Shown: positions 15,408 to 45,155 of the stretch, piece by piece | Layout: every line of letters begins with the position of its first letter | How positions within the stretch are numbered: the stretch's first letter is position 1 | Assembly (NCBI GenBank): GCA_043767805.1 | Contig: JAYUGC010000053.1 | Location: 15,064 to 79,063, forward strand | DNA length: 64,000 nucleotides | From: Pseudomonadota bacterium | GTDB taxonomy: Bacteria; Bdellovibrionota; FAC87; UBA2466 | Direction of reading: 5' to 3' | Notes under the pieces: generated by a model | Databases searched by the model: none | Seen by the model: the letters and a program-made list of their open reading frames with translations, nothing else | Told to the model about the DNA's origin: nothing | Position numbers and translations under genes: made by a program

Positions 15408-15431
15408 AGCTAATTTTCCGTTCCCCGGGGA

Positions 15432-19508: not shown

Positions 19509-19538
19509 TCCAGGGGGAATCCGGGATAGAATTTCGCC

Positions 19539-20273
19539 ATGAGTCGTCCGGTAAAAACTTTGGTTGGTCTCTTGGCCTTGTGGCTCGCAAGCCCCTTGCC
19601 CGCGAGCACCCTGCCCGGCGCGCTTGGTCCTTCCGACGTGGGCCGCATCGTCGAGATCATCGGTATCCCCGCCGTCGCCCGGCCCTTGCGCTCGGCGGAG
19701 GCGTATGCGACCTGGCCGGGCCTGAAACTCGGCTTCGAAGTTTTAGCCATCGGAGAACGAGGGCTAAACCTTTTGGGAAATGGAACTGGTACCCTCCCCA
19801 ATTTAAGTCCGGTGCCTCGTCTGTATCTCTCCAAGGGCCTTTTTTACGATTCCGAGATCACCATCAGCTTCTTCCCGACGAGCGAAGTCAATCCGGTGGC
19901 GACTCTCGGTGTCATCTTCAAATACTGTTTTTATCAGGAACAGGCGGATTGGCTGAGCATCGCGGGTTACCTCGGCTTCACGGACGTCGAAGCGTTTCGA
20001 TCGCAGTACCACGGTACCGACATCGAAGTCGGCGTCATCTTGAGTAAGGACTACGTTCGCATGAAGCCTTACCTTGGTCTCGCCATTCTCGTGGCCCGGG
20101 GAGAAGTGGACCGGGCGCTGCTGGCTTCCCGAGTTACCGACAACGACGCGTGGCAATCGACGTTGCACGCCTTTCTCGGCACCGAGTTCGAGCTCCCGCT
20201 CACCTTCGGCGCTCAAGTGGATCTCTTCAACTTATCCTTAGGGGCGAGCTTCTTCGTCGGGAAGAAGTTTTAA
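19539..20273 (+). CDS. secreted hypothetical protein, probable small outer-membrane beta-barrel
   Basis: Signal peptide; amphipathic beta pattern; C-terminal Phe (..FFVGKKF). Confidence 0.45.
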   Translation: MSRPVKTLVGLLALWLASPLPASTLPGALGPSDVGRIVEIIGIPAVARPLRSAEAYATWPGLKLGFEVLAIGERGLNLLGNGTGTLPNLSPVPRLYLSKGLFYDSEITISFFPTSEVNPVATLGVIFKYCFYQEQADWLSIAGYLGFTDVEAFRSQYHGTDIEVGVILSKDYVRMKPYLGLAILVARGEVDRALLASRVTDNDAWQSTLHAFLGTEFELPLTFGAQVDLFNLSLGASFFVGKKF

Positions 20274-20732
20274 GCGCTCGATGAGGCTCGTGGTGGAGAA
20301 CCCGGGCACTAAAGAGAGCACCCGCACTTCGCCGCCGCCCGCTTCGACGACCAGACGCTCGGGCAAATCTTCCACGCGATAATCGCCGCCTTTTACGTGG
20401 ATGCCGGGCTTGACCATTTCCAGAAACGCTTCGGGCGTCGCCTCTTCGAAAATGACGACGTAATCCACGCACTCGAGGGAAGCGATCTGGCGGGCACGCA
20501 CGAGCTCCGGATTGAGCGGCCGGGACGGGCCTTTCAATCGCTTCACGGAGGCGTCGCTATTTAAGCCCACGAGTAAAAGGTCGCCCAAGGCCTTTGCCTC
20601 GGTCAGGTATTGGATGTGGCCCCAGTGCAGAAGATCGAAGCAACCGTTAGTCGTAACCAACCGTTTCCCTTGGTCTTTCACCAATTTGGAAAGCGTCGGC
20701 AGCGTTGTGAAGGAAACGATCTTCTGGTCCAC
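20238..20732 (-). CDS. stand-alone cytidylyltransferase-like domain (HldE/RfaE domain II: heptose 1-phosphate adenylyltransferase)
   Basis: TNGCFDLLHWGHIQYL, LNSDASVKRLKG and KGGDY match the C-terminal domain of E. coli HldE. Confidence 0.75.
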   Translation of the reverse strand: MDQKIVSFTTLPTLSKLVKDQGKRLVTTNGCFDLLHWGHIQYLTEAKALGDLLLVGLNSDASVKRLKGPSRPLNPELVRARQIASLECVDYVVIFEEATPEAFLEMVKPGIHVKGGDYRVEDLPERLVVEAGGGEVRVLSLVPGFSTTSLIERLKLLPDEEARP

Positions 20733-29866: not shown

Positions 29867-30271
29867 TTGGAAACTGGATACATCACGGTCTTCTGGTTCG
29901 TGGTTTTCTCCTGTTTGACCGTTCCTTTGATGTTGGGAATCGGCTGGATCCTACGGCCGAAGCACACGCCCAAGGGTAAAGAAGCGCTTCCCTACGAGTG
30001 CGGCGAAGAGCCGACCGGTCCCGCCTGGGTACAGTTCAACATTCGCTTTTACGTGGTCGCCATCGTCTTCCTCATTTTCGACGTGGAGCTCGTGGCCCTT
30101 TATCCGGCGGCCGTTCTCTATAAGGACGCTATCAATAACGGCACCGGGGCTTTGGTTTTCGCAGAGATTTTCCTGTTCGTGGGGCTCCTCCTTGTGGGCC
30201 TCCTCTATTGTTGGGTTCGTGGAGACTTGGAGTGGGTTAAGGGCATCATCAAGATCGCCCCCCAGAAATAA
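29867..30271 (+). CDS. nuoA: NADH-quinone oxidoreductase subunit A (TTG start)
   Basis: 3 TM helices; ECGEEP and FDVEL motifs. Confidence 0.85.
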   Translation: METGYITVFWFVVFSCLTVPLMLGIGWILRPKHTPKGKEALPYECGEEPTGPAWVQFNIRFYVVAIVFLIFDVELVALYPAAVLYKDAINNGTGALVFAEIFLFVGLLLVGLLYCWVRGDLEWVKGIIKIAPQK

Positions 30272-30274
30272 CCA

Positions 30275-31420
30275 ATGGTACAAAGCGCAGCCTTTGCACA
30301 GTCCCTGCAGACCTGGGTGGGCCTCGGCCCCCTGTGGATGTGGGCCGCCCTTTCGGCCTTACTGATCATCTATCTCTTGGCTCTGCCGTTCGGCGGTTTG
30401 GCCACGTACGTAGAGCGTAAGGTTTCGGCCGACATGCAGGACCGCATCGGTCCGAACCGGGTCGGTCCCCTCGGCATCCTGCAGTTTCTCGCCGACGCCG
30501 TGAAAATGATTTCGAAGCAGGATTTCGTTCCGCCCGACGGCGATCGCTTCCTGTACGGCCTCGCCCCCATTCTGGTGGTCGGCGGCGTTTGCTCGGCCTT
30601 CGCCGTGCTTCCCCTCAGCCAGTACTTGATGGGCGCGGATATCGACATTGGCGTCTTCTACATGTTCGCCTGCAGCACCATCGTGGCGCCCGGCATCTTG
30701 CTCGGCTCCTGGTCGTCTGCGAACAAGTGGTCGCTTCTCGGAGGCCTTCGCGCCGCCGCTCAAATCGTCAGCTACGAAATCCCGGTGGCGCTTGCCATCG
30801 CGCCCATCATCTTGATCTCGGGCTCTCTTCGGGTCGGCAGCATCGTCGAGCAGCAAGGCTGGATTTGGTCGGGCGAAAACCCGTTGAACGCCCACTTCTG
30901 GAACGTGTTTCACAACCCGTTCTGCTTCGTGGCCTTCTTCCTCCTTTTCATCTCAGGCCTCGCCGAAACGAACCGCATTCCCTTCGACTTACCGGAAGCG
31001 GAATCGGAGCTCGTCTCCGGCTTCAACACGGAATTCTCCGGCATGCGCTTCGGCCTCTATGCCTTGGGCGAGTTCTGCGAAGTGTTCGTGATGTGCGCCC
31101 TAGCCGTCGCGCTTTATCTCGGCGGCTGGCATCTGCCCTTCTTAAATCTCGATGCCCTCTGGATCAAGCTCCCCACGGGACTCATCGCGCTCATTCAGTT
31201 CACGGTTTTCATGGCCAAGGTGCTCTTCCTGGTTTTCGTGGTCATGTGGTTGCGCTGGACTTTGCCCCGCCTTCGGGTCGACCAGCTCATGGGTTTCTGC
31301 TGGAAGGGTCTCGTGCCCTTGTCTCTCATCAACCTGCTCGGCACCGCGGTTTGGATGTGGGTGTTTCACAACAAATCGCTTATCCAGCTCGTTCTCGGCG
31401 CTGGCGGCGGGGGACACTGA
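30275..31420 (+). CDS. nuoH: NADH-quinone oxidoreductase subunit H
   Basis: YVERKVSADMQDRIGPNRVGP, GWSSANKWSLLGGLRAAAQ and ETNRIPFDLPEAESELV motifs. Confidence 0.9.
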   Translation: MVQSAAFAQSLQTWVGLGPLWMWAALSALLIIYLLALPFGGLATYVERKVSADMQDRIGPNRVGPLGILQFLADAVKMISKQDFVPPDGDRFLYGLAPILVVGGVCSAFAVLPLSQYLMGADIDIGVFYMFACSTIVAPGILLGSWSSANKWSLLGGLRAAAQIVSYEIPVALAIAPIILISGSLRVGSIVEQQGWIWSGENPLNAHFWNVFHNPFCFVAFFLLFISGLAETNRIPFDLPEAESELVSGFNTEFSGMRFGLYALGEFCEVFVMCALAVALYLGGWHLPFLNLDALWIKLPTGLIALIQFTVFMAKVLFLVFVVMWLRWTLPRLRVDQLMGFCWKGLVPLSLINLLGTAVWMWVFHNKSLIQLVLGAGGGGH

Positions 31421-31423
31421 TTT

Positions 31424-31942
31424 ATGTCGGATTCGGCAAAGCTTATCCTGCTCTTCGGGCAAATTCTGACCGTCGGCTCGGCGATCGTGGTGGCCATCCA
31501 CCCGAATATCCTCTACGCGGCGGTGGCGTTACTCTCGACGTTTCTGGGCGTGGCCATTCTCTTCTTGTTTAGTGGCGCGGACTTCGTGGCGGGCGCTCAA
31601 GTGGTGGTCTATGCGGGCGGTATCACCATCCTCATCCTCTTCGCCATTATGCTCACGCAGTGGCTCTATAAAGTTAAGCTGCGCGATTACGGCGCCAGGC
31701 TTCTGGTCCCAGCCGTAGTGGCTCTCGGCGTCTTTCTCGTCGTCTACCGCTCCACCGCGGAGCTCGGTAACTGGGCGCTAAAAAACGCGCCCACTGAAGC
31801 GGTCGACAAGTTCGCCTTCCTCCCGAAAACGGCCCTCATCGGTCAGGCGTTTCTCGGCCCGTACCTTTTAGCCTTTGAAGCGGTAACCATTCTCTTATTG
31901 GGCGCGCTCGTCGGAGCGGTCTGGCTGGCGAGGCCTAAATGA
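31424..31942 (+). CDS. nuoJ: NADH-quinone oxidoreductase subunit J
   Basis: 172 aa, 5 TM helices, NuoJ-like (VVYAGGITILILF). Confidence 0.8.
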   Translation: MSDSAKLILLFGQILTVGSAIVVAIHPNILYAAVALLSTFLGVAILFLFSGADFVAGAQVVVYAGGITILILFAIMLTQWLYKVKLRDYGARLLVPAVVALGVFLVVYRSTAELGNWALKNAPTEAVDKFAFLPKTALIGQAFLGPYLLAFEAVTILLLGALVGAVWLARPK

Positions 31943-32262
31943 ATCTTTTGAACTGGGCCACGGGCCTGCACGGCTACCTCTGGGTCAGCACGGCGCTCTT
32001 CGCGCTGGGCGTCCTCACCGTTTTGTCCCGCAAGAACGCCATCGGAATCCTGCTCGGCGTCGAATTGATTTTGAACGCGGCGGCCATCAACTTCGTGGCC
32101 TTCAGCCGTTTTCGCACCGGCGCCGTCGACGGACACATGGTGGCTCTTTTCATCATTTTGGTGGCGGCCGCTGAAGCTGCGGTCGCGCTCGCGATTATCT
32201 TGAGGCTCTACCGCCTCCGTCAGACGGTCGATACCGACGAGGCGACCCTCTTAAGGAACTAA
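31939..32262 (+). CDS. nuoK: NADH-quinone oxidoreductase subunit K
   Basis: 107 aa; conserved Glu in GVELILNA and in AAAEAAV. Confidence 0.85.
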   Translation: MNLLNWATGLHGYLWVSTALFALGVLTVLSRKNAIGILLGVELILNAAAINFVAFSRFRTGAVDGHMVALFIILVAAAEAAVALAIILRLYRLRQTVDTDEATLLRN

Positions 32263-32264
32263 CC

Positions 32265-34322
32265 ATGGCGCAAACTTGTCTGCTCATCGTGCTGCTTCCG
32301 CTCACCGCCTTCGTAGTGCAGGTGTTCTTCGGTAAGCGCTTGCCCCGCCAAGGAGACTGGGTCTCCATCCTGGCCATCGCCGGTTCGCTCTTTCTCGCTT
32401 TCCCGATTTTCACGGCTTTCCTCAGCACGGGTAACCTGCACGACACCTTGCAGACCACCTGGATGTCCCTGCCCATTCAGGTCTCCGGACACGGCGGCAT
32501 GTCGTCTTTCGACATCGTCATCGGCACGCTGGTCAATAACCTGACCGCCATCATGCTGTTTATGGTCACGCTCTGCGCGACCCTCATTCATATTTTCGCA
32601 AGCTCCTACATGCACGGCGAGCCCCGCTACCACCTTTTCTTCGCGTACATTTCGCTCTTCTCGGCGGCAATGCTGGGCTTGGTCGTCTCGGACAACCTGC
32701 TCACCTTCTTCATCTGCTGGGAGATCATGGGCCTTTGCTCCTACTCCCTCATCGGCTTCTACTACGAGAAGCCGTCCGCGAACGTGGCGAGCCTCAAAGC
32801 GTTCATGACCACTCGCGTGGGTGATTGCTGCTTCTTCCTCGGTATCTGCGGCTTGTACTTCCTGTTCGGCACTTCGAACTTCGAGCAGATTTATCAAAAC
32901 CTCGCGATGCCCGAGCTCGCGGGACGCACCATCTTAGGGATGCCGGCCTTGGCCTTCATCGGCTTTATGCTGATGATGGGCACCATCGGTAAATCGGCGC
33001 AGTTCCCGCTCCACATCTGGTTGCCGGACGCGATGGAAGGCCCGACACCCGTCTCGGCCCTCATCCACGCGGCCACCATGGTGGCCGCCGGCGTGTTCCT
33101 GCTCATTCGCACCTTCCCGCTGCTTCAAGCCGCGGAAATCGTGCTTCCGGTCATCGCCTACATCGGCGCGTTCACGGCGCTCTTTGCGGCGACGATTGCC
33201 CTGGTGCAGGTCGACATCAAGAAGGTGCTCGCCTACTCGACGATTTCTCAGCTCGGCTTCATGGTGTTCGGTGTCGGCGTCGGCGCTTTCGCGGCGGCTT
33301 TCCTCCACCTTCTCACCCACGCCGTTTTCAAAGCTTGTTTGTTCCTCGGCTCGGGTAGCGTCATCCACTCCGTTCACACGAACGACATGCGCGAAATGGG
33401 CGGCCTGCGCACCAAGATGCCTTGGACGTTCCGCACGATGCTGATTTCCACTTTCGCCATCAGCGGCTTGCCCTTCTTTTCGGGCTTCGTCTCGAAAGAC
33501 CGGATTCTCGCCGGCGCACTTGCTTACGGCATGGAACATCCGCAACACATGCTCGTGCCCATCTTCGGATTCACGGCGGCGGGCCTCACGGCGTTTTACA
33601 TGTTCCGCCTGATCTACCTGACGTTCTTCGGCCACGCGCGGGACGAGCACAAGCACCACCACGCGCACGAGTCGAGCCCGGTCATGACGGTGCCGCTCAT
33701 GATCCTAGCCACCCTCTCGTTTGCGATTTGGTACGCGGGCCCCACGGGCATCGAGTTTATCGATCACATCCTTCCGGTCCGCTGGTACGACATCGGCATC
33801 GCGAACGTCATGGAGTCGATGCACATTCACGCCGCCCACGGCGACGAGCACATCCATCACCTCGCCCACAACCTGGCGCTCATTTTGTCGCTCTCCATCG
33901 CGGGCGCGGGCATCCTGCTCTCGACTTTGATGTACCTGAAAAAGGTAATCTCGCCGGACGCTATCCAAAAGCGTCTTTCGGCCGTGCACAAAGTGCTTTG
34001 GAACAAGTATTACGTCGACGAGCTCTTCATCGGCATCGGGATTAAGAAGGGTCTTTTGACCTTCAACAACCTGCTCGCCCGCTTCGACGACTTGGTCGTG
34101 GACCGGATTTTCGTCGACGGCTGGAAAGATATCGCCATGGCCGTTAAGTCTGCGGTGAACCAGTTCGACAATATCGTCGTCGATAAGGGCCTCGTGGATG
34201 GAACCGCGTACGCGGTTTCCGCCGGCGGTTGGATGATCCGTCAGTTTCAGACCGGTCAGGTGCAGACGTACCTCGTTTGGACCTTGGTCGCTCTTGGCAT
34301 CTATTTGGTACGCGTTTTTTAA
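32265..34322 (+). CDS. nuoL: NADH-quinone oxidoreductase subunit L
   Basis: 685 aa; GKSAQFPLHIWLPDAMEGPTPVSALIHAATMVAAGVFLLIR; C-terminal long-helix region WNKYYVDELF. Confidence 0.9.
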   Translation: MAQTCLLIVLLPLTAFVVQVFFGKRLPRQGDWVSILAIAGSLFLAFPIFTAFLSTGNLHDTLQTTWMSLPIQVSGHGGMSSFDIVIGTLVNNLTAIMLFMVTLCATLIHIFASSYMHGEPRYHLFFAYISLFSAAMLGLVVSDNLLTFFICWEIMGLCSYSLIGFYYEKPSANVASLKAFMTTRVGDCCFFLGICGLYFLFGTSNFEQIYQNLAMPELAGRTILGMPALAFIGFMLMMGTIGKSAQFPLHIWLPDAMEGPTPVSALIHAATMVAAGVFLLIRTFPLLQAAEIVLPVIAYIGAFTALFAATIALVQVDIKKVLAYSTISQLGFMVFGVGVGAFAAAFLHLLTHAVFKACLFLGSGSVIHSVHTNDMREMGGLRTKMPWTFRTMLISTFAISGLPFFSGFVSKDRILAGALAYGMEHPQHMLVPIFGFTAAGLTAFYMFRLIYLTFFGHARDEHKHHHAHESSPVMTVPLMILATLSFAIWYAGPTGIEFIDHILPVRWYDIGIANVMESMHIHAAHGDEHIHHLAHNLALILSLSIAGAGILLSTLMYLKKVISPDAIQKRLSAVHKVLWNKYYVDELFIGIGIKKGLLTFNNLLARFDDLVVDRIFVDGWKDIAMAVKSAVNQFDNIVVDKGLVDGTAYAVSAGGWMIRQFQTGQVQTYLVWTLVALGIYLVRVF

Positions 34323-34339
34323 GGTGATGTGAGGAAACT

Positions 34340-35842
34340 ATGCTTAGTTGGATGACCTTTACCCCCCTTCTGGGGATGGCCGTCGTTCTTGCTCTCCCCA
34401 AGGAGAAGCACAATTTAATCCGCTGGACGGCACTCGTGACGTCCTTGATACCGCTCGGCTTCGCCGCGGTCCTTTTCATGCACTTCGACCGCACGACGGC
34501 GGCGATTCAGTTCGTGGAACGGGTTTCGTGGATTAAACCCTTTAACATCGAATACTACATGGGCGTCGACGGCCTGAGCATTCCGATGATTCTGCTGACC
34601 GCCCTACTCACCGTCATCTGCATCATCGCCTCGTGGACCATCGACTACGCGGTCAAAGGCTACTTCGCCATGTTCCTGATGCTGGAATGCGCCATGCTCG
34701 GCGTGTTCATGGCTTTGGACTTCTTCCTCTTCTTCATCTTCTGGGAAGCGATGCTGCTCCCGATGTACTTCCTAGTCGGTATCTGGGGAGGCCAGAACAA
34801 GGTCTATGCGGCCATCAAGTTCTTCCTCTACACGCTGTTCGGCTCCGTCTTGATGCTGATCGCGATGCTGGGCTTTTATTACTACGGCGGCCAGAGCTTC
34901 GATCTCATCAAACTCGCGGCGACGCATCCGTTCGCGGGTCAGACGATTGCCCTCTTCGGCTGTCAGATGCCTCTCGATAAGTTCTTCTGGGTGATGCTCT
35001 TTATCGGCTTCGCCATCAAGGTTCCCGTGTGGCCTTTCCACACCTGGTTGCCTTGGGCGCACGTCGAAGCCCCGACGGCGGTCTCGGTCATTCTGGCCGG
35101 CGTGCTGCTTAAGATGGGAACGTACGGCATCCTGCGCATGAACTTCCCGATCCTTCCCGAAGCGACCATGTGGGCCTCGAACGCCATGATGATCTTGGGC
35201 GTGATCAACATTCTCTACGGAGCCTTCTGCGCGATGGCGCAGAAGGATCTGAAAAAGCTCGTCGCTTACTCCTCCGTTTCCCACATGGGTTACGTGATGA
35301 TGGGCATGGCGACCTTTACGGTGGCCGGCGTGAACGGCGCCGTTCTCCAGATGTTCAACCACGGTACGTCGACGGCCATGCTCTTCCTCTTGGTCGGCGT
35401 GATCTACGACCGCGCTCATCACCGCTGGATCGTGCGCCCCGACGGCTCGCGCGGCTTCGGCGGTATCGCCGCGGTCGCTCCCGTGTACACGGCGATTTTC
35501 GCGGTGGCGCTGTTTGCGTCCCTCGGTCTTCCGGGCTTGTCCGGGTTCATCAGCGAAGCGCTGATCTTCCTCGGCGCCTTCTCGGTTCCGAAGTACCAGA
35601 CGCTCACCGTATTCGGCGCATTCGGCATCTTACTCGGCGCCGCGTACCTCCTCTGGATGTTCATGCGGGTGTTCTTAGGTCCCTTGAATCCCGAGTACGC
35701 GAACTTGGAAGACATGAACTGGCGTGAGCGAGGCATGCTCATTCCGCTTTGCATTCTCGTCGTGCTTTTCGGCGTCTATCCCATGCCGGTATTGAACTTG
35801 ATGGGAGCGACGGTCGCAAAGCTCCTGACTTACTTTTCGTGA
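34340..35842 (+). CDS. nuoM: NADH-quinone oxidoreductase subunit M
   Basis: FWEAMLLPMYFLVGIWGG, AIKVPVWPFHTWLPWAHVEAPT and GVLLKMGTYG motifs. Confidence 0.9.
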   Translation: MLSWMTFTPLLGMAVVLALPKEKHNLIRWTALVTSLIPLGFAAVLFMHFDRTTAAIQFVERVSWIKPFNIEYYMGVDGLSIPMILLTALLTVICIIASWTIDYAVKGYFAMFLMLECAMLGVFMALDFFLFFIFWEAMLLPMYFLVGIWGGQNKVYAAIKFFLYTLFGSVLMLIAMLGFYYYGGQSFDLIKLAATHPFAGQTIALFGCQMPLDKFFWVMLFIGFAIKVPVWPFHTWLPWAHVEAPTAVSVILAGVLLKMGTYGILRMNFPILPEATMWASNAMMILGVINILYGAFCAMAQKDLKKLVAYSSVSHMGYVMMGMATFTVAGVNGAVLQMFNHGTSTAMLFLLVGVIYDRAHHRWIVRPDGSRGFGGIAAVAPVYTAIFAVALFASLGLPGLSGFISEALIFLGAFSVPKYQTLTVFGAFGILLGAAYLLWMFMRVFLGPLNPEYANLEDMNWRERGMLIPLCILVVLFGVYPMPVLNLMGATVAKLLTYFS

Positions 35843-35850
35843 GATGATGC

Positions 35851-37338
35851 ATGGCTAATCTGCTGTTGAACTTGAAGCTCTTTGGACCCGAAGCGACCCT
35901 GGTGGGTCTCTTGGTCATCCTCTTTCTGGTGGACGGCTTTCTGCCGAAATCCCGGGAGAGCTTCTTGCCGCTCTGCCTGGTCGCCTTGGCTTCGGCCTTC
36001 GCGGCCTACATCACCTGTCAGCTGAACGTCGCCCCGGCGACCTTCTTCACGGGTCTTGTGGCGAACGACGGGTTCTCGGCTTTTTTCCGCTACATCTTCT
36101 TGTTCACGCTCGTTGCGGGACTCTATTTGGCCTATGGCTCCAAAGAAGTGCCCAAAGACGCCCGCATCGAGATGTCGCTGCTCCTCGTTTGCGTGACTTT
36201 CGGCATGAGCCTCATGGCCATTGCCTCGAACCTCTTGATGCTTTGGCTCGGCGTCGAAACGGTGAGTATCGTGTCCTTCGTGCTGGCGGGTTTTCGCCGG
36301 GACAACCTTCGCTCGAACGAAGCGTCCTTCAAGTACTTGGTCTACGGAAGCTTGGCTTCCGGACTCATGCTCTACGGCATGAGCCTCATCTATGGATTCG
36401 CGGGAAGCCTCTACTACGCCGACCTCAGCAAGTACTTCATGCTGCATTCGGGTGAGCTTCCCTACACTTTGGCGCTCTCCCTCCTTTTGGTGTTCGCGGG
36501 TCTCGCGTACAAAGTGTCGGCATTCCCGATGCACTTCTGGACCCCGGACGTTTACGAAGGCGCCCCCACTCCGGTGGCGGCGTTTTTCTCGGTAGGTCCC
36601 AAGGCGGCGGGATTTGCGGCCCTCATGCGCATCTTCCTCGACGTCTTTTCGTTCAAGACGGGGCCGCTTCAGTGGCATTCCGTCGAAGGCATCGCGATTC
36701 CCCACGGCTTGGCCATCATCGCGGCGCTCACCATGATCGTCGGTAACCTTTCCGCGCTCGGACAGACCAACGTGAAACGCATGCTCGCCTACTCGAGCAT
36801 CGCCCACGTCGGTTACATGCTGGCGGGTCTCGTGGCCTTAAATAGCGCGGGCATCACGGCGGTTCTCTTCTACATCGTCGCTTATTGCGGCATGAACCTC
36901 GGCGCTTTCTGGGTAGTGAGCGTCGTCACCGATCGGCGCGGCAACGAAGATCTCGAGGCTTTCCGCGGCATCGGCGCGAAGACGCCGCTGCTCGGCATCT
37001 GCATGGCGGTCTTTCTCTTTTCGCTGACCGGTTTGCCCCTTTTCTCCGGCTTCATTGGAAAGTTCCTGCTTTTTGGCGCCATTTTGCAGACTCCGGGCTT
37101 CCTATGGCTTGCGCTCATCGGCGTCTTGAACAGCGTCGTTTCGCTCTTTTATTACGTCCGGGTGCTGAAATCCATGTGGCTGGATAGTCCCGCGGCCGGA
37201 GACACCGGAGCGGTCGCGCTTCCGCTCTACCATGCGATTCCGCTCCTGGGCCTCGCAATCCCAACCATCATTCTCGGCCTCTTTTTCACGCCCATTTTCG
37301 AGTTCGCGCAGCGCTCGGTCGCCGCCTTCCTCAACTAG
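35851..37338 (+). CDS. nuoN: NADH-quinone oxidoreductase subunit N
   Basis: LWLGVETVS, AYKVSAFPMHFWTPDVYEGAPTP and KRMLAYSSIAHVGYML motifs. Confidence 0.9.
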   Translation: MANLLLNLKLFGPEATLVGLLVILFLVDGFLPKSRESFLPLCLVALASAFAAYITCQLNVAPATFFTGLVANDGFSAFFRYIFLFTLVAGLYLAYGSKEVPKDARIEMSLLLVCVTFGMSLMAIASNLLMLWLGVETVSIVSFVLAGFRRDNLRSNEASFKYLVYGSLASGLMLYGMSLIYGFAGSLYYADLSKYFMLHSGELPYTLALSLLLVFAGLAYKVSAFPMHFWTPDVYEGAPTPVAAFFSVGPKAAGFAALMRIFLDVFSFKTGPLQWHSVEGIAIPHGLAIIAALTMIVGNLSALGQTNVKRMLAYSSIAHVGYMLAGLVALNSAGITAVLFYIVAYCGMNLGAFWVVSVVTDRRGNEDLEAFRGIGAKTPLLGICMAVFLFSLTGLPLFSGFIGKFLLFGAILQTPGFLWLALIGVLNSVVSLFYYVRVLKSMWLDSPAAGDTGAVALPLYHAIPLLGLAIPTIILGLFFTPIFEFAQRSVAAFLN

Positions 37339-37341
37339 CCT

Positions 37342-37367
37342 CTTAAAAGATACGCCGTACCTTTTAG
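37342..37367. repeat. imperfect palindrome CTTAAAAGATACG/CCGTACCTTTTAG 4 nt after the nuoN stop (copy 2 of the recurrent motif)
   Basis: Read directly; shares the CTTAAAAG(G/A)TAC core with 4999-5018 and 60861-60887. Confidence 0.7.
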
Positions 37368-37406
37368 GACGACGGGGAATGGGTCCGACCGTATAATTCG
37401 GGAACT

Positions 37407-38045
37407 TTGAGCTCCTATTTTTCTATCGGACTCTCGGCCTTGTCTATCGCCGGAGGCGCCGTGGTTTTACTCAGTCATGGCGGGCGTATGCTCGCGGGCG
37501 GCTGGGCACTCACCTGCTTCTCGCTCTCGATCCTCGCGCTACTGCAACCCGGGCCGCCTTGGCTCTTGGCTCTCTTAATCGCCGGGCTCGCCGTCAGTCT
37601 CGGCCTGTCGCTTGCGGTGCTCGCTTCGGAATCGCTTCCCGGGTTCTTGGACGGAAACGTTCGCAAAATTCTCGCGGTATTCGCGGTCTGGGCAATCAGC
37701 CTCTTCATCCTTCGCTCGTCCCATGCCTCGCACCTCCATGGCGCGGCCGAGACCTATTGGTCGCTCTATAGTACGGCCGCCCTTTTCGGGCTGGGGTTAC
37801 TCACCCTCATCCTAAAGCGAGACGCCGTGCAAGTATGGAGCGGGGTGGGCCTTTTACTTTTAAGTCCCTTACCCACTTCGCTCGCTTCGGCCGCGGGGCT
37901 GCAATCGGGAGACGGCTGGCTACTATCGCTACTTTGTGGCGCGCTTTGCGCCGTGCACGGCGCATTCGCGATAGTGGTACTCGGACGCGTCAGCCGCCGG
38001 GAAGGCTCTCTCGACGTCAAAACTTGGGAGGAGCTTCAAGGGTGA
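37407..38045 (+). CDS. degenerate NuoJ'/NuoK'-like fused membrane protein (TTG start)
   Basis: The C-terminal half aligns to the adjacent NuoK (STAALFGLGLLTLILKRDAV vs STALFALGVLTVLSRKNAI), but the conserved Glu of GVELILN reads GVGLLLL. The N-terminal half has a weak NuoJ-like pattern (GGAVVLLSHGG vs GSAIVVAIHPN). About 6 TM helices. Confidence 0.55.
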   Translation: MSSYFSIGLSALSIAGGAVVLLSHGGRMLAGGWALTCFSLSILALLQPGPPWLLALLIAGLAVSLGLSLAVLASESLPGFLDGNVRKILAVFAVWAISLFILRSSHASHLHGAAETYWSLYSTAALFGLGLLTLILKRDAVQVWSGVGLLLLSPLPTSLASAAGLQSGDGWLLSLLCGALCAVHGAFAIVVLGRVSRREGSLDVKTWEELQG

Positions 38046-38992
38046 TTGGCTTTCAACACACTTGGTGGCGCATCGCGAGCTTCGACATCCTCTGTAGCTG
38101 GTACGCCGATAAATTTGATCTAGCCGCGCTCTTTGCCGTCTTCGCGCTGACCGTGCTGTGGGCGGCTCGCCAGCCTCGGGCCACGTGGGCCGCGGTAGTG
38201 TGGTTTCTGGCGACGGGCGCGCTTTGCGGCGCGGGAAACGCCTTCACGCTCATCTCCGCCTGGATGCTGGGAACCGTCGCGACCCTCGTCCTCTTTCACG
38301 CAAGCAGCGAGGGAAATCAACGCGGGCTATATACGTTCGCCCTGGCCGGTGCGCTTGCCGACGTTTTGCTTTTCTTGGGCTACCTGCTCTACGGCGGCAC
38401 TTACCGAGACAGCTTTCTTCCTACCGAAGAACAATTTTTAGAAGCGTCCGTGGCTTTGACGACGTTTCCTGCAAAGGCCTTTGCCCTAAGCGCGCTACTC
38501 GCCGTCTTAGCACGCCTCGTTATCGGCGCGGGAAGTCTTTGGCTTCCCGGCGAGCCGCAACTTCAAGCAAGAGAGTTCTTGGCGCAAAGACTCGCCGTAC
38601 TGCTCTTACCCTGCGTGATGCTACTCGATAAGCTCAGCTTTCTTAAAGCGGACGCCTCGGAAGGGGCGGTTCTCACCGTGCTAGTTCTTTCGATCCCCGC
38701 CATCTTGGGCGGTGCTTTTCACGCCATGAACCGGCCTTTCCCTTGGTTTCTCAATCCGGCCAAATGGTTCGACGAGCTCGTGCAAAAACCGTTGCGCTCT
38801 CTCATCGGCTTCTTCGACCGCAGGCTCGAAGCCCGCACCTTCGATGCCATTTTGATTCTGCCCACCCGGCTCGCGCGGGCGGGAGGCGTTTGGATTTCGC
38901 TCGTTCAGTCGGGTTCGCTCGCCTCTTACCTTACGTTTTCCGTACTGGGAATGGCGGCGCTTTTTGCCTGGGCACTGTGGGGAGGCAAATGA
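38042..38992 (+). CDS. degenerate NuoL'-like protein retaining N-terminal TM helices and the C-terminal long-helix region but lacking the antiporter core
   Basis: GTG start overlapping the upstream stop (GTGA). N-terminus has LVLFHASSEGNQRG, compared with LIHIFASSYMHGEPRY in NuoL. C-terminus has WFDELV...FFDRRLEARTFDAILI, compared with YYVDELF...RFDDLVVDRIFVDG in NuoL. Length is 316 aa against 685 aa for NuoL. Confidence 0.55.
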   Translation: MIGFQHTWWRIASFDILCSWYADKFDLAALFAVFALTVLWAARQPRATWAAVVWFLATGALCGAGNAFTLISAWMLGTVATLVLFHASSEGNQRGLYTFALAGALADVLLFLGYLLYGGTYRDSFLPTEEQFLEASVALTTFPAKAFALSALLAVLARLVIGAGSLWLPGEPQLQAREFLAQRLAVLLLPCVMLLDKLSFLKADASEGAVLTVLVLSIPAILGGAFHAMNRPFPWFLNPAKWFDELVQKPLRSLIGFFDRRLEARTFDAILILPTRLARAGGVWISLVQSGSLASYLTFSVLGMAALFAWALWGGK

Positions 38993-40506
38993 GTTACCTG
39001 CTTCCCTGGTTCTTTTATCTTCCGCTCATCGCCTTTGGCGCGGCGCTGCCTTTCTCGCTCGCTCTCTCCCGGCGAGTGGCCGGGGCGCTTGCGATCGTGA
39101 ACTTCCTTGCTCCGCTGACGTTTTATACCTTAGGCGACTCCGTGTGGCTCCAGACCCTGACAGGAATCACTTTCCAAAGCGGTCCCTTGCAACTTCAGCT
39201 CGATGCCTGGACGCTTCCCTTTCTGCTTCTCATCAAGCTCGCGGCCTTACTCGCCTTGAAACAACCTTCGGTCCGGCTGGGACGCACTCAGCTTGCCTGT
39301 CTTTTCGGAGCCGACTTTGCGCTTTCCGGGGCGCTATTTTCCACCGATGTTTTTGCCATCGTATTTTTCTCGCAGCTCGCCCTTGTTCCCCTTTCGCTGC
39401 TCATCGTGATCTGGGGCGGGCACGACCGGCTCTTCGCTTCGCGGAAGTTCTTTTTGTCTCAAACCGCGGGCTGCCTGCTTTGGCTCGTCGCCTTGGCGAT
39501 TCGCGCTTCCACTCACGAGTCTCAGTTCGGATATCCGAGCGGGCTCCCCGCGGATCTCGCCAAAGCCCTGGGACCGGCCGAGCTGACCGCTTTCGTCTGT
39601 TTTCTCCTGGGCTGTTTCCTTCGCTCCGCCGTGTTTCCGCTTCATAGCTGGCTGCCCGATACGCTGGCTCAAGCTCCCCTTTCGGCGAGTCTCCTTATCG
39701 TCGGTGGGCTGCTTCCTTCCGGCATTCTCCTGCTTCAGCGCGTGGGCCTTTCCGTTTTCCCGGCGGGCTTTGAGCGCGCGCAAAACCTGGGAACGGCCCT
39801 CGCGGTGTTCGGAGCGATTTACTCAGGGCTACTCGCCTGGCGGCAAAACGATAGCCGCCGCTACCTCGCCTTCGCGGCCAGTCTACTCATGTCGTTCGTT
39901 CTGGGAGGCGTGCTCATGGCGGGTCCGCTCACTTGGACGGCCAGCGCCTTTCTCCTCTGCGCGGGCTCACTCGCGAGTCTTGGCGTTTTGATTCTTTTCG
40001 AGTGGGCTTTTGAGCGCCAGAATAGCCGTCAGCTACCGGATTGGGCGGGGCTCGGGCAACAGAGCCCGCTCTTCCGCGGTTTTCTCGTATTCCTCACCCT
40101 GAGCGCGCTCACGCTTCCGGGCACCGCGGCCTTTCCTGGAACCTTCGCGCTTTTGACCGCCGCCATAAACCGCAACTTCATCTGGTGTGTAGGCTGGCTT
40201 GCCTCACTTTTCCTTTTGATGGCAAGTGCCGTGCGCCTGCTCGGTACGATTTCCTTCGGCACGCCTCGCCGCGGCCCGCTAGTCGCTGGATCCGATCTGT
40301 CGACGAGTGAGTCGTTGAGACTCTTGGCCCTTTCTCTGCTTCTTTTGGCTTTGGGCTGCGCTCCCGGTGGGTTTCTGGCTTCTTTAGAGCGGCCCATCGA
40401 GTCTTTCTGGGAAGCGAGTCCCGCGAAGGAGCGGTTCGTCTTTCCCGGAGACGAAGGCAAGAGCACCTTGCCAAGAGTCTTTCACCGGGATGAGGTTCCG
40501 CAATGA
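38991..40506 (+). CDS. degenerate NuoM'-like antiporter-family subunit
   Basis: ATG overlapping the upstream stop (ATGA); FAIVFFSQLALVPLSLLIVIWGGHDRLFASRKFFL aligns to [33 protein letters not shown] of NuoM; FPLHSWLPDTLAQAP aligns to WPFHTWLPWAHVEAP. Confidence 0.65.
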
Positions 40507-41891
40507 ATCCTTCTTCCGCGACTTTCTACGTCGTGGGCTTTCTCTTCGCGAGCGCGGTGCTAGCCGCGGCGGTTGCGCACTCACGGCGGCTTTCTCTTTA
40601 CCTTTCCGTTTTCGCTTTTGGGACGGCCGAGCTTGCGCTCGGCTGGCTCGCCGCTGGCAGAGTTGGCAACTGGCTTCCGCCCGTCGACTCCCGCTTTCTG
40701 ACCCTCTCGGGTTACCGCTTGGATGCGGCTTCGCTCCTTCTGCTTTTTTGTGCGGCTTCTTATTTACTGGTCCACGCGTTTGCCGAAGATGAGGTGAAAC
40801 GCGGAAGCTTGGGGCCGCTCTTCCTGCTTGCGGCGGCCGCGGGAATTTTATGCGCCGCCAGTGAGAACCTCTTAGTCACTTGCTTTGGCCTGGAGCTCGG
40901 CGCGCTTGCCGCCCACGGCATCACCGCCTTTCCCTCGCTCACCCGAGATCGGTTTGAAGCCCTCTGGAAACAGTATGCGTTCCATGGCCTGGGCACGGCT
41001 TGCCTACTTTTGGGCAGCGCTCTGTTTTACTCTCAGCTTGGCACTCTCGCTCTTACCGAAATTAGAGACACCCTTGCCGCCCAGCCGCCTTCGCCTTTCG
41101 TCACCGTGGCGTGTGTCTTATTGCTACTGGGCATCGCGGAGAGGCTCGGCGCGTTTCCCTTTCTCTCTTGGCCCGCCGACGTGACCGAAGGATCGCCATG
41201 GGGCGGGGTGTTTCTCGAAACGGCGGGACGCTTTATTTCGATCTGTGCCCTACTGCCGCTTTTCCTCGAAGCTCTGCTTCCGCTTCGGTCCGCTTGGGTG
41301 GGCCCGCTCTTCGTCATTGGCGGAGTCACTCTCGCGTGGGGCGCGCTAGGTGCGATCACGCAAACGAATCTGAAACGCTTACTCGCCTATTTAGGACAGG
41401 CGCACGTCGGGTGGCTACTTCTTTTTGCGGCGGCTTCCAGCGAACGAGGCAGCCTTGCCGGTCACTTTCTACCTTCAGCTCTCATCTTCGCCCTGGTCGC
41501 CCTCGGACTTCGCGCCGGTGTCTGTCTTTTGGAGCGCGAGGCAAATGACTGCGATATTTATCAGCTCTCGGGACTAGGAGAAACCCATCCCGTGCTCGCT
41601 CTGTGGTGGACGTTACTTTGCCTGGCCGGCGCGGGATTTCCACCGACCTCCGGGTTTGCCGCGCAAACGGCTTTCTTCCTGGAGCTCGGCTCGACCGGCC
41701 ACGTACTGCGCCTAATCGCCATCGGCGTGGGTTTATTGGCCGTGGCCTATTCTTACTTGAGAATGGTCGCTTACCTCTACGGCCGGGAATGCCGGGAGAC
41801 CATCGCGTTGACCCACCGGGCGGCGCTTCCCATCGCCTGCGCCTCGGCGTGCGCGATACTGGCGGTAGTGCTCCTCTTTTTCTGGCGCTAA
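40503..41891 (+). CDS. degenerate NuoN'-like antiporter-family subunit
   Basis: Overlaps the upstream stop; NLLVTCFGLELGA aligns to NLLMLWLGVETVS; AFPFLSWPADVTEG aligns to AFPMHFWTPDVYEG; KRLLAYLGQAHVGWLL aligns to KRMLAYSSIAHVGYML. Confidence 0.65.
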   Translation: MNPSSATFYVVGFLFASAVLAAAVAHSRRLSLYLSVFAFGTAELALGWLAAGRVGNWLPPVDSRFLTLSGYRLDAASLLLLFCAASYLLVHAFAEDEVKRGSLGPLFLLAAAAGILCAASENLLVTCFGLELGALAAHGITAFPSLTRDRFEALWKQYAFHGLGTACLLLGSALFYSQLGTLALTEIRDTLAAQPPSPFVTVACVLLLLGIAERLGAFPFLSWPADVTEGSPWGGVFLETAGRFISICALLPLFLEALLPLRSAWVGPLFVIGGVTLAWGALGAITQTNLKRLLAYLGQAHVGWLLLFAAASSERGSLAGHFLPSALIFALVALGLRAGVCLLEREANDCDIYQLSGLGETHPVLALWWTLLCLAGAGFPPTSGFAAQTAFFLELGSTGHVLRLIAIGVGLLAVAYSYLRMVAYLYGRECRETIALTHRAALPIACASACAILAVVLLFFWR

Positions 41892-42313
41892 CGAAAGTCA
41901 GAAGGAAGCTTTCCAGTCACTTTGCGAAACGCGTGAATGAATTGGGAGAGTGAGGAGTGGCCCACTTCGAGCGCCACGTCCGTCACGGAAGTGTCCCGCT
42001 TGTTTAAAAGACGTTTCGCCTTTTCCATCCGGCAGAAGAGCACCATCTGCTTCGGAGAAAAAGAAAGCTCGTCCAAACAAATCCGGTTGAGGCTTCTGAG
42101 GGAGAGGCCAGAGTGCTTCGCGATTTCTTCGACCGACAAAGGCTCTTTGAAGTTCGCTTCGATATAATCGACCGCGCGAGTGACACGAGCATCTTTGGCG
42201 AGCTCATGAAGTCGAAATGCTTTGCTCTCGCTCTCCTTGCTACCACGGCCTGCGCGGCCCAAAAGCCCGCGGTCTACACGTTCGAATCGGACAGGGGGTG
42301 GCTTTAACACCAA
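41888..42313 (-). CDS. AraC-family transcriptional regulator (HTH domain)
   Basis: LSVEEIAKHSGLSLRSLNR...DVALEVGHSSLSQFIHAFRKVTGKLPSDFR is the AraC C-terminal dual HTH; the N-terminal ligand domain appears short or absent. Confidence 0.65.
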   Translation of the reverse strand: MVLKPPPVRFERVDRGLLGRAGRGSKESESKAFRLHELAKDARVTRAVDYIEANFKEPLSVEEIAKHSGLSLRSLNRICLDELSFSPKQMVLFCRMEKAKRLLNKRDTSVTDVALEVGHSSLSQFIHAFRKVTGKLPSDFR

Positions 42314-42410: not shown

Positions 42411-43394
42411 CTATTCGGAGAAAAGCGCAGTATGGATTTTGCCGTCTTGGGTTACATACCCGCGGGGCATACCCGCCACGTTTCGGCTAAACGCCAAGTT
42501 ACCCTTCGGATCGAGAACGATCGCGCCGCCGTGGCCGTCCACGGGTTTGAGCTTTTGGAGTATCACGTCGTCGGCAGCCCGCGCGCCCGACCAATGTTTA
42601 TATTTCATCTGAGCACACACATCGTAAGCGGCCACGAACCGAATGAAGAATTCCCCGTGTCCGGTTGTCGAGATGGCGCATAAACCGTTTTCCGCGTATG
42701 TGCTGGCTCCGATGATGGGCGTATCGCCAACACGGCCATGCTTCTTGTTGACCCGTCCTCCCGTCGAAGTCGCCACGGCGAGATTGCCTTTTGCGTCCAA
42801 AGCCACGGCGCCGACCGTGCCTTTCGCGTCTTCAAGAAGCTTTCCCTCGGCCTCGCCCTGCTTTTTTTGAACTCGCTTTAACTCGTCCAGGCGCCACTGT
42901 GTCGAAAAATAGGAAGGCTCCACCAAAGTGAGGCCGACTTCTTTGGCTAGCTTTTCCACGGCGTCTCCGGCGAGAAAGGCATGGGAAGTGTGTTCCATTA
43001 CCGCGCGCGCCGCCGAAATGGGATTTTTCACGGCGGTCACTCCAGCCACCGAGCCAGAATTTCTCGTCCTGCCATCCATGATGGAAGCTTCTAACTCGTT
43101 CTTTCCTTCTTCCGTAAAAACGGCTCCCTTACCGGCGTTAAACAGAGGATTGTTCTCCATTACGATCACGGCCGCTTCGACCGCGTCCAGGCTTGAGCCC
43201 TTGGCTTTGAGCACGGCGTAACCCGCCGCTAGCGCCTCTGACAGACCTTGGTGATAGATCTTTTCTTTTTCCGGCGGAATTTTCTGATGATCGGCGGTGC
43301 CGCCATGGATGGCCAAAATCACCCGGGCCGCCGAATCCGCGCCGAAGCTGGAGAAGGTGAAGGTTAAAGCCGCGAGGAGAATCTTGGTTGCCAT
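42411..43394 (-). CDS. isoaspartyl peptidase / L-asparaginase (Ntn-hydrolase), secreted
   Basis: Signal peptide; Ntn-hydrolase motifs including the autoproteolytic GTVGAVALD site, HGG and GMPRG. Confidence 0.75.
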   Translation of the reverse strand: MATKILLAALTFTFSSFGADSAARVILAIHGGTADHQKIPPEKEKIYHQGLSEALAAGYAVLKAKGSSLDAVEAAVIVMENNPLFNAGKGAVFTEEGKNELEASIMDGRTRNSGSVAGVTAVKNPISAARAVMEHTSHAFLAGDAVEKLAKEVGLTLVEPSYFSTQWRLDELKRVQKKQGEAEGKLLEDAKGTVGAVALDAKGNLAVATSTGGRVNKKHGRVGDTPIIGASTYAENGLCAISTTGHGEFFIRFVAAYDVCAQMKYKHWSGARAADDVILQKLKPVDGHGGAIVLDPKGNLAFSRNVAGMPRGYVTQDGKIHTALFSE

Positions 43395-43487: not shown

Positions 43488-45155
43488 GTGTCGGCAGCGG
43501 CGTGGGCCAATGCGGATAGCGATCTCAAATTCACGAAATTTATCGACGCCTACTACGACGCGTACTTCCATTGGAACCCGTCTTATGCAACGTGGGCCGG
43601 GTTTCATGCTTATGACGGCGAAATGTCGGACTGTAGTAGGAGCGGGGTAACCCGGCGCGTCCGCGCCTTGAACGGATTTCTTGCCCAGCTAAAAGGTTTT
43701 GACGAAGCCACTTTGTCTAAAGACAACTCGCTGGATCGGCGGCTGCTCGTGTCGGAGATACACGCGGAAAAGCTAAGCCTCGAAACGCTTAGATACTGGC
43801 AAACCGATCCCGACGGTTACTCGAGTGAGGTCAACCACGCCGTCTATTTGCTCATCAATCGCGATTTCTCCCCCATCGAAGCTCGTTTGCGCTCGATCGT
43901 TTCAGTGGAAAAAAAGGCGCTTCGGCAATTTTCTTGCGCCCGTGCCAATCTCAAGAACCCGCCCAAGATTTTCACTGAAATAGCCATCGAGCAGATACCT
44001 AGCATCGTCCGCTTTTTCGAGAGAGACGTCCCCTTGGCCGTTTCGGGGTCAAAGGACCAGAAACTCAATACGGAGTTCAAACGCGCGAACCAAGCCGTCA
44101 TCGGAGCACTTCAGCGCTACCAAATCTTTTTGAAAAATGAGGTGCTACCAAGATCTAAAGGCGACTATCGGCTAGGCGAAAAGAACCTCCGCGCTAAACT
44201 GAAATTTCAAGATATGATCGAGACACCGCTAGATGAGCTCTTAAAAATTGGCATGGAGGACTTAAGAAAAAATCAGACGGAATTCGCCGCGGTCGGCAAA
44301 AGAATCGACCCCACAAAGTCCACCGCGGAAATTCTGGAGTCCTTGGAATCCGATCATCCGACGTCGGAAAAGCTTTTGGACAGCGTCCGCTTGGTTTTGG
44401 GCGACATCCGAAAGTTTATATTGAGCCACGACATCATCACGCTTCCCTCGGACAAAGATCCCATCGTGCAGGAAACCCCGCCTTTCAAGCGAGCTTCCAC
44501 GTTTGCCTCCATGAACACGCCCGGCCCCTTCGAAACCCACGGCACCGAGGCGTATTATAACGTGACTCTCCCCGACCCCTCCTGGACGAAAGAGCATACG
44601 GAGCAGCATCTCAGGGGCTTTAACCGTGGCACCATCGTCAGCACCTCGATTCACGAGGCGCTTCCTGGCCATTACACGCAGTTTCTTTGGTTCAAGAAGG
44701 CGCCGAGCAAAGTAAGGAAGTTCTTTGGAGCGAAATCCAACAAGGAGGGCTGGGCTCATTACACCGAAGAAATGATGCTCGACGAAGGATTCGGTAACGG
44801 CGATCTCCAATTGAAATTGGGCCAGCTTCAGGACGCCCTTCTTAGAAACGCTCGTTTCATCGTCGCCATTCAGCTGCATACCGGCAAGATGACTTTCGAG
44901 GAAAGCGTTCGCTTCTTTGAGCAGGAGGGGTATCAGACCCGCGCCAATGCCGAGCTCGAGGTAAAGCGCGGAACCTCGGACGCAACCTATCTCGTCTACA
45001 CCTTGGGGAAGCTTCAGGTGAAAGAGTTGAAGGAAGCCTATAAACGCGCCAAAGGCAGGCATTTCCGCCTGAAGAGTTTTCACGACGAGTTCGTGAAACA
45101 GGGCGCGATTCCGATTCCGATGATTCGAGAGATTATGCTTTCAGGCAGCCACTAG
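43488..45155 (+). CDS. DUF885-family protein (putative periplasmic metallopeptidase-like)
   Basis: Family-level resemblance across the length (YYDAYFHWNP..., HEALPGHYTQF); GTG start at 43488, but a signal-peptide-like in-frame stretch lies upstream without a canonical start codon. Confidence 0.5.
   Translation: MSAAAWANADSDLKFTKFIDAYYDAYFHWNPSYATWAGFHAYDGEMSDCSRSGVTRRVRALNGFLAQLKGFDEATLSKDNSLDRRLLVSEIHAEKLSLETLRYWQTDPDGYSSEVNHAVYLLINRDFSPIEARLRSIVSVEKKALRQFSCARANLKNPPKIFTEIAIEQIPSIVRFFERDVPLAVSGSKDQKLNTEFKRANQAVIGALQRYQIFLKNEVLPRSKGDYRLGEKNLRAKLKFQDMIETPLDELLKIGMEDLRKNQTEFAAVGKRIDPTKSTAEILESLESDHPTSEKLLDSVRLVLGDIRKFILSHDIITLPSDKDPIVQETPPFKRASTFASMNTPGPFETHGTEAYYNVTLPDPSWTKEHTEQHLRGFNRGTIVSTSIHEALPGHYTQFLWFKKAPSKVRKFFGAKSNKEGWAHYTEEMMLDEGFGNGDLQLKLGQLQDALLRNARFIVAIQLHTGKMTFEESVRFFEQEGYQTRANAELEVKRGTSDATYLVYTLGKLQVKELKEAYKRAKGRHFRLKSFHDEFVKQGAIPIPMIREIMLSGSH

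Follow-up and report, generated by a model that had tools for sequence, protein, structure and literature searches.

The locus

This analysis concerns L', a short forward-strand gene in a 64,000-nucleotide stretch of DNA (the window; positions 15,064 to 79,063 of contig JAYUGC010000053.1, GenBank assembly GCA_043767805.1) from a bacterium that GTDB places in the Bdellovibrionota. L' belongs to a cassette of four genes, J'K', L', M', and N', whose stops and starts overlap throughout: the GTG start of L' shares bases with the TGA stop of the gene before it (GTGA), and the TGA of L' does so with the ATG of the gene after it. The order of the cassette is (J)K-L-M-N. L' occupies the L slot, between homologs of nuoK and nuoM, both here and in relatives. 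Upstream lies a canonical partial complex I operon, nuoA-H-J-K-L-M-N, and 68 bp separate its nuoN from J'K'. The original prediction, made from the sequence letters, described L' as a derivative of NuoL that had lost its antiporter core, and it gave the correct coordinates (38042-38992) and lengths (316 amino acids (aa) versus 685 aa for the canonical NuoL, here called NuoL1). Here, we argue that L' is probably a translated, selectively maintained, and drastically reduced paralog of a second NuoL type, NuoL2, and that it may serve as a clamp or cap in a putative non-pumping module resembling the complex I membrane arm.

The C-terminal region of L'

At the level of sequence, the similarity of the L' C terminus to NuoL2 is solid. 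A profile built from three L' sequences was run in a full HMMER search against 1.84e9 representative proteins. Beyond one close and one distant relative of L', the only credible matches are NuoL C termini. Specifically, L' 241-313 matches the C terminus of a 617-aa NuoL (P0008; expect value (E) 9e-4) and also P0006, an 81-aa protein that resembles a NuoL C terminus (E 3e-4). When L' is compared by hhalign with a NuoL2 family consisting of eleven NuoL2 sequences plus P0008, residues 241-308 align with NuoL2 554-625 (93.5% probability, E 2.3e-7), as the original prediction of a NuoL-like C terminus would have it. The aligned segment runs from the W-F-D-E-L motif of the lateral helix, HL, via a Q-x-G...Y motif into transmembrane helix (TM) 16. 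In L', an amphipathic stretch covers approximately residues 229-282 (hydrophobic moment 0.46-0.59) and is followed by a plain hydrophobic helix. The DEL and QxG motifs lie 48 residues apart in L', as against 52 in NuoL2 and 77-80 in NuoL1. Alignment, profile search, and hydrophobic moment all place a NuoL-type HL and TM16 anchor in L'.

The profile search also returned a 3390-aa protein (P0005) that matches L' 182-260 in 12 stretches (E 2.4e-5). That similarity is probably repetitive or compositional.

The N-terminal and middle regions of L'

Conventional searches with L' return little. Pfam offers nothing at E≤1, neither PF00361, whose absence had been expected, nor PF00662. NCBIfam gives no NuoL match at E≤0.1; its sole line, SigC (E 1.5e-3), falls far below that family's cut-off and was dismissed as noise. 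A sequence search of the PDB is empty, and BLASTP of L' against the operon's own 685-aa NuoL is not significant (best E 0.59).

Profile-profile comparison does detect a relationship. When a profile of L' 1-240 is used in hhalign, L' 2-116 aligns with NuoL1 60-196 in the NuoL1 family (score 34.7), and L' 64-226 aligns with NuoL2 132-298 in the NuoL2 family (score 33.6). Reversed profiles score 12-15, and forty local column shuffles that preserve composition score 16 on average (standard deviation (sd) 2.4, maximum 24), which puts the L' scores 7-8 sd above the shuffled controls. The M and N families score lower, 14-24, and hmmsearch sets the L' N-terminal profile in a consistent register on 84 NuoLs. 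On its own, the sub-profile of residues 1-125 scores 32.5 (E 7.6e-4), and that of residues 126-240 gives no significant signal. Residues 2-63 are placed by profile-profile alignment on the Proton_antipo_N region (TM2/3 loop to TM3-4) in the absence of a PF00662 match. In two independent MAFFT runs, W74 falls on the Trp of TM5, D107 on the Asp of TM6, R158 on the Lys of TM7, and W167-L-P on the WLP motif of TM7; W74, D107, L168, and P169 are invariant across 90 sequences, and residues 173-228 are scattered in the alignment. We read L' 24-125 as a degenerate TM3-TM6 of NuoL, on similarity that appears weak but real, and L' 126-240 as probably TM7 (R158, W167-L-P) plus two more TMs.

The NuoL likeness that had been proposed for the N terminus is borne out in kind (33.6-34.7 versus 16 ± 2.4 for shuffled columns), but not in register. 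The original prediction paired LVLFHASSEGNQRG with LIHIFASSYMHGEPRY in TM3-4, a match that BLASTP recovers only without significance (E 0.83) and that is off by approximately two helices: in the profiles, LVLFHASS falls at the end of TM5, and LTVLWAARQPRA faces the TM3-4 loop.

Regarding the deletion, the collinear hhalign extension of the L' middle reaches NuoL2 298, and NuoL residues ~300-550 have no counterpart in the L' alignments. Because only residues 2-125 carry significant signal alone, we place the deletion junction within L' ~170-235. NuoL possesses a 14-helix core with two inverted five-helix repeats (TM4-8 and TM9-13), whereas L' has approximately seven predicted core helices. Compared with the ~633-aa NuoL2, L' is predicted to be missing TM1-2 along with some six helices from the TM8-TM15 interval, and the latter region corresponds, on these alignments, to the second half-channel with the TM11/TM12 lysines. 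Every candidate junction removes six helices. Therefore, the topology should be kept, with the N terminus outside and the arginine-rich HL inside. The parts of NuoL still present in L' are its contact-making elements, namely the face formed by TM5-TM6, which includes the invariant Asp, together with the lateral and anchor helices.

The earlier description of an internal-deletion derivative fits insofar as N-terminal helices and the lateral-helix/TM16 end are kept around a large internal loss, but TM1-2 are gone as well. Likewise, the stated loss of ~370 aa is correct arithmetic against NuoL1, but the parent type is the ~633-aa NuoL2, and degenerate TM3-6, probably with TM7, remains. Finally, L' was said to keep the coupling-rod element without the transporter core. 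HL is indeed kept; however, some of the first-half core, TM3-TM6 and probably TM7, survives in charge-stripped form, and the coupling-rod function was assumed.

Loss of proton-transfer residues across the cassette

In L', both hhalign and MAFFT show the TM5 Glu replaced by Met75. The position of the TM7 Lys is occupied by Arg158 in MAFFT only, as hhalign puts Leu159 there, and a Lys at the position of residue 158 occurs in P0007 only. The region of the TM11/TM12 Lys is absent. L' keeps the TM5 Trp (W74) and the TM6 Asp (D107).

The other three proteins of the cassette have been altered in a similar manner. Residues 120-212 of J'K' (K' for short) cover the whole NuoK profile (PF00420 E 1.1e-3; NCBIfam NuoK E 3e-4), and alignment with the NuoK proteins of the first and second sets (K1 and K2; see below) shows Gly and His in place of the two NuoK glutamates, E36 and E72, respectively. 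K' ends in ..WEELQG, like the second-set NuoK2, and K' 1-103 aligns by hhalign with NuoJ2 1-107 (score 24.2, E 0.006). J'K' is apparently a fusion of a truncated NuoJ2 (aa 1-~105, for which the evidence is weak) with NuoK2. None of the six positions checked in M' keeps its canonical residue: the Glu of TM5, the Lys of TM7 and of TM8, the His of TM10/11, and the Glu of TM12 have all been replaced. N' is replaced at three of four key Glu/Lys positions (TM7 Lys to Arg, TM8 Lys lost, TM12 Lys to Gln) and keeps the TM5 Glu and the TM10 His only. By contrast, in M2, N2, and K2 of relatives, every residue lost in the cassette is still present. The continuous protonatable axis through K-, N-, M-, and L-type subunits is absent from the cassette, and the canonical proton path is predicted to be abolished throughout it.

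Descent from a second membrane-arm gene set

A scan of species-representative genomes with the canonical NuoM placed the window in the Bdellovibrionota and brought out the likely origin of the cassette. The closest locus, L002, belongs to an uncultured Pseudobdellovibrionaceae metagenome-assembled genome of the Bdellovibrionota (NuoM 89% identical) and carries a K'-L' pair after nuoN; its contig ends inside L'. Four further loci (L003, L005, L006, and L008; NuoM 73-77% identical) encode nuoAHJKLMN followed by a complete second set, nuoA2-H2-J2-K2-L2-M2-N2. Each of the four has a full-length NuoL2 of 623-637 aa, and all of these genes lie at the position of the cassette. In L003, for example, the second set spans 13014-20318, and its 633-aa NuoL2 lies at 15338-17239. 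M' has a bit score of 167-168 against M2 versus 84-96 against M1, and N' has 149-166 against N2 versus 87-94 against N1. Because M' and N' score approximately twofold higher against M2 and N2, and because K' ends like K2, the cassette appears to be a reduced descendant of the second set. The parent type of L', judged from the alignments, is the second-set ~633-aa NuoL2 and not the adjacent 685-aa NuoL. Relative to the second set, the cassette lacks A2 and H2, has J and K apparently joined in one gene, and encodes an L of half the size.

Relatives of L' itself are few. Four of them, at 50-77% identity, are also 316 aa long, and the same neighbors surround L' in all three relatives with readable contigs. 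A more distant member (28% identical, 247 aa) is flanked by a K'-like end and an M'-like gene, and the latter has also lost the TM5 Glu. In L001, whose L' is 77% identical, the cassette is preceded not by nuoN but by a minus-strand, divergently oriented gene resembling glycosyltransferase family 2 (L001 1-738), which suggests that the cassette is an autonomous, self-contained unit. Altogether, the L' family amounts to approximately six sequences among billions of proteins searched. Word-indexed homolog searches with L' return three to four proteins, query included, and pattern scans with the L' alignment found no relatives in GTDB species genomes or JGI metagenomes.

The tandem layout of two sets is widespread. 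It is present in L004 (5885-16865), where nuoH, nuoN, and nuoL2 are broken into multiple frames; given that genes of both sets are hit, sequencing or assembly is a likelier cause than pseudogenization. A tandem second set also occurs in L019, L023, L028, L035, L041, and L066, and partially in L027 and L060; most of the loci named here carry it in full. Many Bacteriovoracaceae loci share the layout, and the start of a second set is found in two Marinimicrobia loci (L062 and L079). The closest relatives of NuoL2 outside the phylum include Bacteroidota (Pontibacter, ~50% identity).

Purifying selection

Substitution patterns argue that the cassette is maintained. For K', L', and the start of M', the approximate ratio of nonsynonymous to synonymous substitution rates (dN/dS) between the window and L001 comes to 0.11, 0.125, and 0.19, respectively. 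Within L', the ratio is 0.10-0.13 in each third and 0.10 in the C-terminal part (aa 241-316). Between the window and L002, it is 0.24 for L', which is likewise the upper value for J'K'; the canonical NuoL, NuoM, and NuoN give 0.12-0.15 in the same comparison. The proportions of nonsynonymous and synonymous differences in L' (pN and pS) are 0.15 and 0.63, respectively, and the overlapping start and stop codons are conserved among L' relatives. With dN/dS at 0.10-0.24 and a length of 316 aa shared by four relatives, L' is not a pseudogene, and on this evidence it appears to be selectively maintained.

Genomic setting

The features of the locus are collected in Table 1.

Table 1. Coordinates, in window positions, of the cassette, the predicted segments of L', and the upstream operon
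Feature	Position	Strand	Description
J'K'	37407..38045	+	212 aa; C-terminal half NuoK-like, N-terminal ~105 aa weakly NuoJ2-like
L'	38042..38992	+	316 aa; putative reduced NuoL2 paralog
L' aa 2-125	38045..38416	+	predicted degenerate NuoL TM2/3 loop to TM6
L' aa 126-240	38417..38761	+	three to four helices of uncertain origin; putative deletion junction
L' aa 241-316	38762..38989	+	distal amphipathic lateral helix HL (from the W-F-D-E-L motif on) and TM16 anchor (Q289-x-G291...Y296)
M'	38989..40506	+	505 aa; divergent NuoM2-type antiporter-like subunit; PF00361 E 9.5e-29
N'	40503..41891	+	462 aa; divergent NuoN2-type subunit; PF00361 E 1.1e-34
Canonical partial operon nuoA-H-J-K-L-M-N	29867..37338	+	directly upstream; predicted not to be the parent of L'
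nuoA	29867-30271	+	
nuoH	30275-31420	+	
nuoJ	31424-31942	+	
nuoK	31939-32262	+	
nuoL (canonical, NuoL1)	32265-34322	+	685 aa
nuoM	34340-35842	+	
nuoN	35851-37338	+	

The best NCBIfam families are NuoM for M' and NuoN for N', both far below cut-off. A promoter and terminator scan gave no signal above background, and no remnants of A2 or H2 were found in the window, where only set-1 genes match. The genes nuoB, C, D, E, F, G, and I are not in the operon in the window, and nuoA runs straight into nuoH; the peripheral-arm nuo genes must lie outside the window.

NuoL1 has a peculiarity of its own. Compared with 85 NuoL2-type sequences, it carries a 26-residue insertion in HL at aa 608-633 (window 34086-34163). 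The insertion is a tandem duplication (FDDLVVDRIFVDG... / FDNIVVDKGLVDG...), and the operon encodes one NuoM only. A long HL spacing of 77-80 residues, versus 52, is present in every set-1 NuoL in which both landmark motifs were found (40 of 73).

Among the flanking genes, gpsA-like and mfd/TRCF genes lie on the minus strand upstream of nuoA. On the other side, a minus-strand gene for an AraC-family helix-turn-helix regulator (41888-42313) converges on N' with a 4-bp tail-to-tail overlap, and it is followed by an isoaspartyl peptidase/asparaginase gene (42411-43394, minus strand) and a DUF885 gene (43488-45155, plus strand). Over positions 30001-42000, the nuo and cassette block, AT skew is -0.20 to -0.34, compared with roughly ±0.1 elsewhere, as would be anticipated from consecutive genes on one strand that are rich in hydrophobic codons with T at the second position.

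A putative clamp in a non-pumping module

The analysis shows the homology, architecture, residue loss, purifying selection, and conserved synteny of the cassette; our interpretation goes beyond these in proposing assembly, a clamp role, and a lack of pumping. The notion is that J'K', N', M', and L' would still assemble like the membrane arm of complex I or Mrp, in the order J'K'-N'-M'-L', with L' as the terminal cap. Conserved synteny and translational coupling are what lead us to infer that the subunits join in one membrane complex. The lateral helix of L' would reach back across M' and N', and the assembly would be anchored by the final helix of L'. L' would be a structural clamp, and the module would no longer pump protons by the canonical route. 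Given that the cassette has lost the canonical proton-transfer residues, there is nothing obvious to couple, and a structural clamp fits better than a coupling rod.

The role of the NuoL lateral helix is debated, with a moving coupling rod on one side and a static clamp on the other. In L', approximately half of the NuoL core is removed and proton-transfer residues are replaced, yet HL and its anchor are kept under purifying selection. If the cassette proteins assemble, this arrangement supports a structural role for HL and would be a rare case of a multi-subunit membrane pseudo-enzyme that arose from complex I.

Several points weigh against our interpretation. The N-terminal homology consists of weak profile scores (E ~1e-3, probability ~20%), and residues 126-240 of L' are unassignable alone, which leaves the deletion boundaries uncertain. 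Full-length M' and N' are known from this window only; the residue losses in them have a single-sequence basis. Synonymous divergence is near saturation (dS 1.0-1.9), which makes the dN/dS ratios approximate. Structure prediction, which had been put forward as a check, helps only in part. The AlphaFold2 model made from three L' sequences alone is poor and unusable (predicted local distance difference test score (pLDDT) 42). A second model reaches pLDDT 77.6, and in it a 51-residue helix (239-289) precedes a TM (293-312); this model is circular, being built on a NuoL-containing alignment, and served for helix boundaries only. Foldseek matches of the L' model to NuoL chains are weak (E at least 0.08). 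Finally, retention under selection implies that the module does something, and that something could be unconventional transport.

Alternative explanations

A related idea, which we consider possible but doubtful, is that J'K'-L'-M'-N' is a charge-stripped "pseudo-enzyme" membrane arm kept for a non-pumping job, in which HL of the half-size NuoL is a purely mechanical clamp. Such jobs may include acting as a scaffold, as an assembly or regulatory partner, or as an add-on to the canonical complex I with its long HL. If true, the structural role of HL would here have been separated in nature from whatever part HL may play in proton pumping.

The cassette could instead supply extra or alternative subunits of the canonical complex I rather than form its own module, which we judge unlikely. 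In one version, it might fill the space implied by the 26-aa HL insertion of NuoL1; in another, it might replace N, M, and L and yield a weakly pumping or non-pumping enzyme. The 68-bp gap here makes co-transcription of the cassette with nuoAHJKLMN probable. Moreover, the passage of PMC9040806 that cites Chadwick 2018 describes a 26-aa HL insertion in NuoL as a hallmark of complex I with a fourth pumping subunit ("2M"), yet set 1, in which the insertion is tandem duplicated, encodes one NuoM. However, the long HL occurs in all measurable set-1 NuoLs, including those of loci with no second set within 10 kb, the L001 cassette is not next to nuoN, and the retention of J'K' argues for a self-contained arm.

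Two further alternatives concern the makeup of L'. The first, which is improbable in our estimation, holds that L' is a plain N-terminal truncation of NuoL2, that is, its collinear C-terminal half from ~TM11/12 to TM16 with no internal deletion. BLASTP against the L003 NuoL2 indeed gives one gapped alignment of L' 82-314 with NuoL2 401-630 (E 8e-15), and the lengths fit (316 aa versus 633-320). The BLASTP score, however, comes from residues 241-314, and L' 82-240 alone matches nothing by BLASTP. In profile comparison, L' 82-240 scores 10.9, which is noise, against NuoL2 380-552 and 27.6 against NuoL2 60-320, and hhalign, hmmsearch, and MAFFT all put the N-terminal part of L' on TM3-7. The BLASTP placement of the L' middle on TM13-15 was rejected for this lack of profile support.

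The second supposes that only the C-terminal ~75 aa derive from NuoL and that the first 240 aa are an unrelated, or unrecognizably diverged, membrane domain whose similarity is an artifact of TM composition. We give this proposal little credence. The empty Pfam, NCBIfam, and PDB sequence searches favor it, as does an hhalign probability of only 17-25% (E ~1e-3). Against it stand the composition-preserving shuffles and reversed controls, the single register across two NuoL families with scores better than against NuoM or NuoN, the landmark residues that MAFFT finds invariant across the L' family and NuoLs, and the location of the gene in the L position of a K-L-M-N order.

Finally, that the cassette is a decaying, functionless remnant, a set of pseudogenes in the making, is very improbable: A2 and H2 are lost, L is truncated, nearly all catalytic residues are gone, dN is approximately threefold higher than in canonical subunits, and the family is extremely rare, but the open reading frames are intact, L' has an identical 316-aa length in genomes 50-77% identical, the translational-coupling overlaps are conserved, pN lies far below pS, dN/dS is low in all three thirds of L', and even the 28%-identical member keeps the gene order.

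Comparison with known systems

The literature searched describes no truncated NuoL paralog accompanied by charge-stripped K, M, and N. Within that literature, a half-size NuoL in a uniformly charge-stripped, selected K-L-M-N cassette is new; partial or duplicated nuo clusters and variation in HL length are already known.

L' resembles NuoL/ND5/Nqo12 in its location between nuoK-like and nuoM-like genes, in the (F/Y/W)-x-D-E-L and Q-x-G...Y motifs of its HL and TM16, and in its TM5 Trp, TM6 Asp, and probable TM7 WLP. It differs in its half length, in its lack of PF00361 and PF00662, in the absence of TM1-2 and approximately six further helices, and in its TM5 Met and TM7 Arg. The 633-aa NuoL2 of L003 is the closest sequence relative of L' (35% identity over HL/TM16), and it shares with L' the slot after nuoN and the M2/N2-type neighbors. 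Unlike L', this NuoL2 is full length, has all catalytic residues, and comes with A2, H2, J2, and K2 partners that the cassette either lacks or has in fused form.

Mrp and MBH modules are built from a pair of antiporter-like subunits together with NuoK- and NuoJ-like subunits and one that bears a lateral helix, and they keep the charged axis. The cassette is made up of similar parts, namely one piece resembling J and K, two subunits of antiporter type, and a lateral helix that ends in an anchor helix. The charged axis, in contrast, is absent from the cassette, and no cassette protein matches the Mrp/Mbh families better than it matches Nuo families.

Partial nuoAHJKLMN clusters have been reported in Bdellovibrionota (PMC13147790) and in marine actinomycetes (PMC6676996). 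Like the cassette, these are extra copies that contain only the membrane arm, and the upstream operon of the window is one such cluster; the published examples differ from the cassette in being complete and apparently functional (PMC13147790, PMC6676996). The "2M" complex I shows that both HL length and the number of antiporter-like subunits vary, and NuoL1 of the window carries an insertion of the "2M" kind. There, however, a pumping subunit is added, whereas L' is reduced and its HL falls slightly short of the canonical length. The nuoAHJKLMN cluster is reported to be conserved in all Bdellovibrionota (PMC13147790), and tandem second membrane-arm sets are common in the phylum. The cassette suggests that such sets can be remodeled rather than simply lost.

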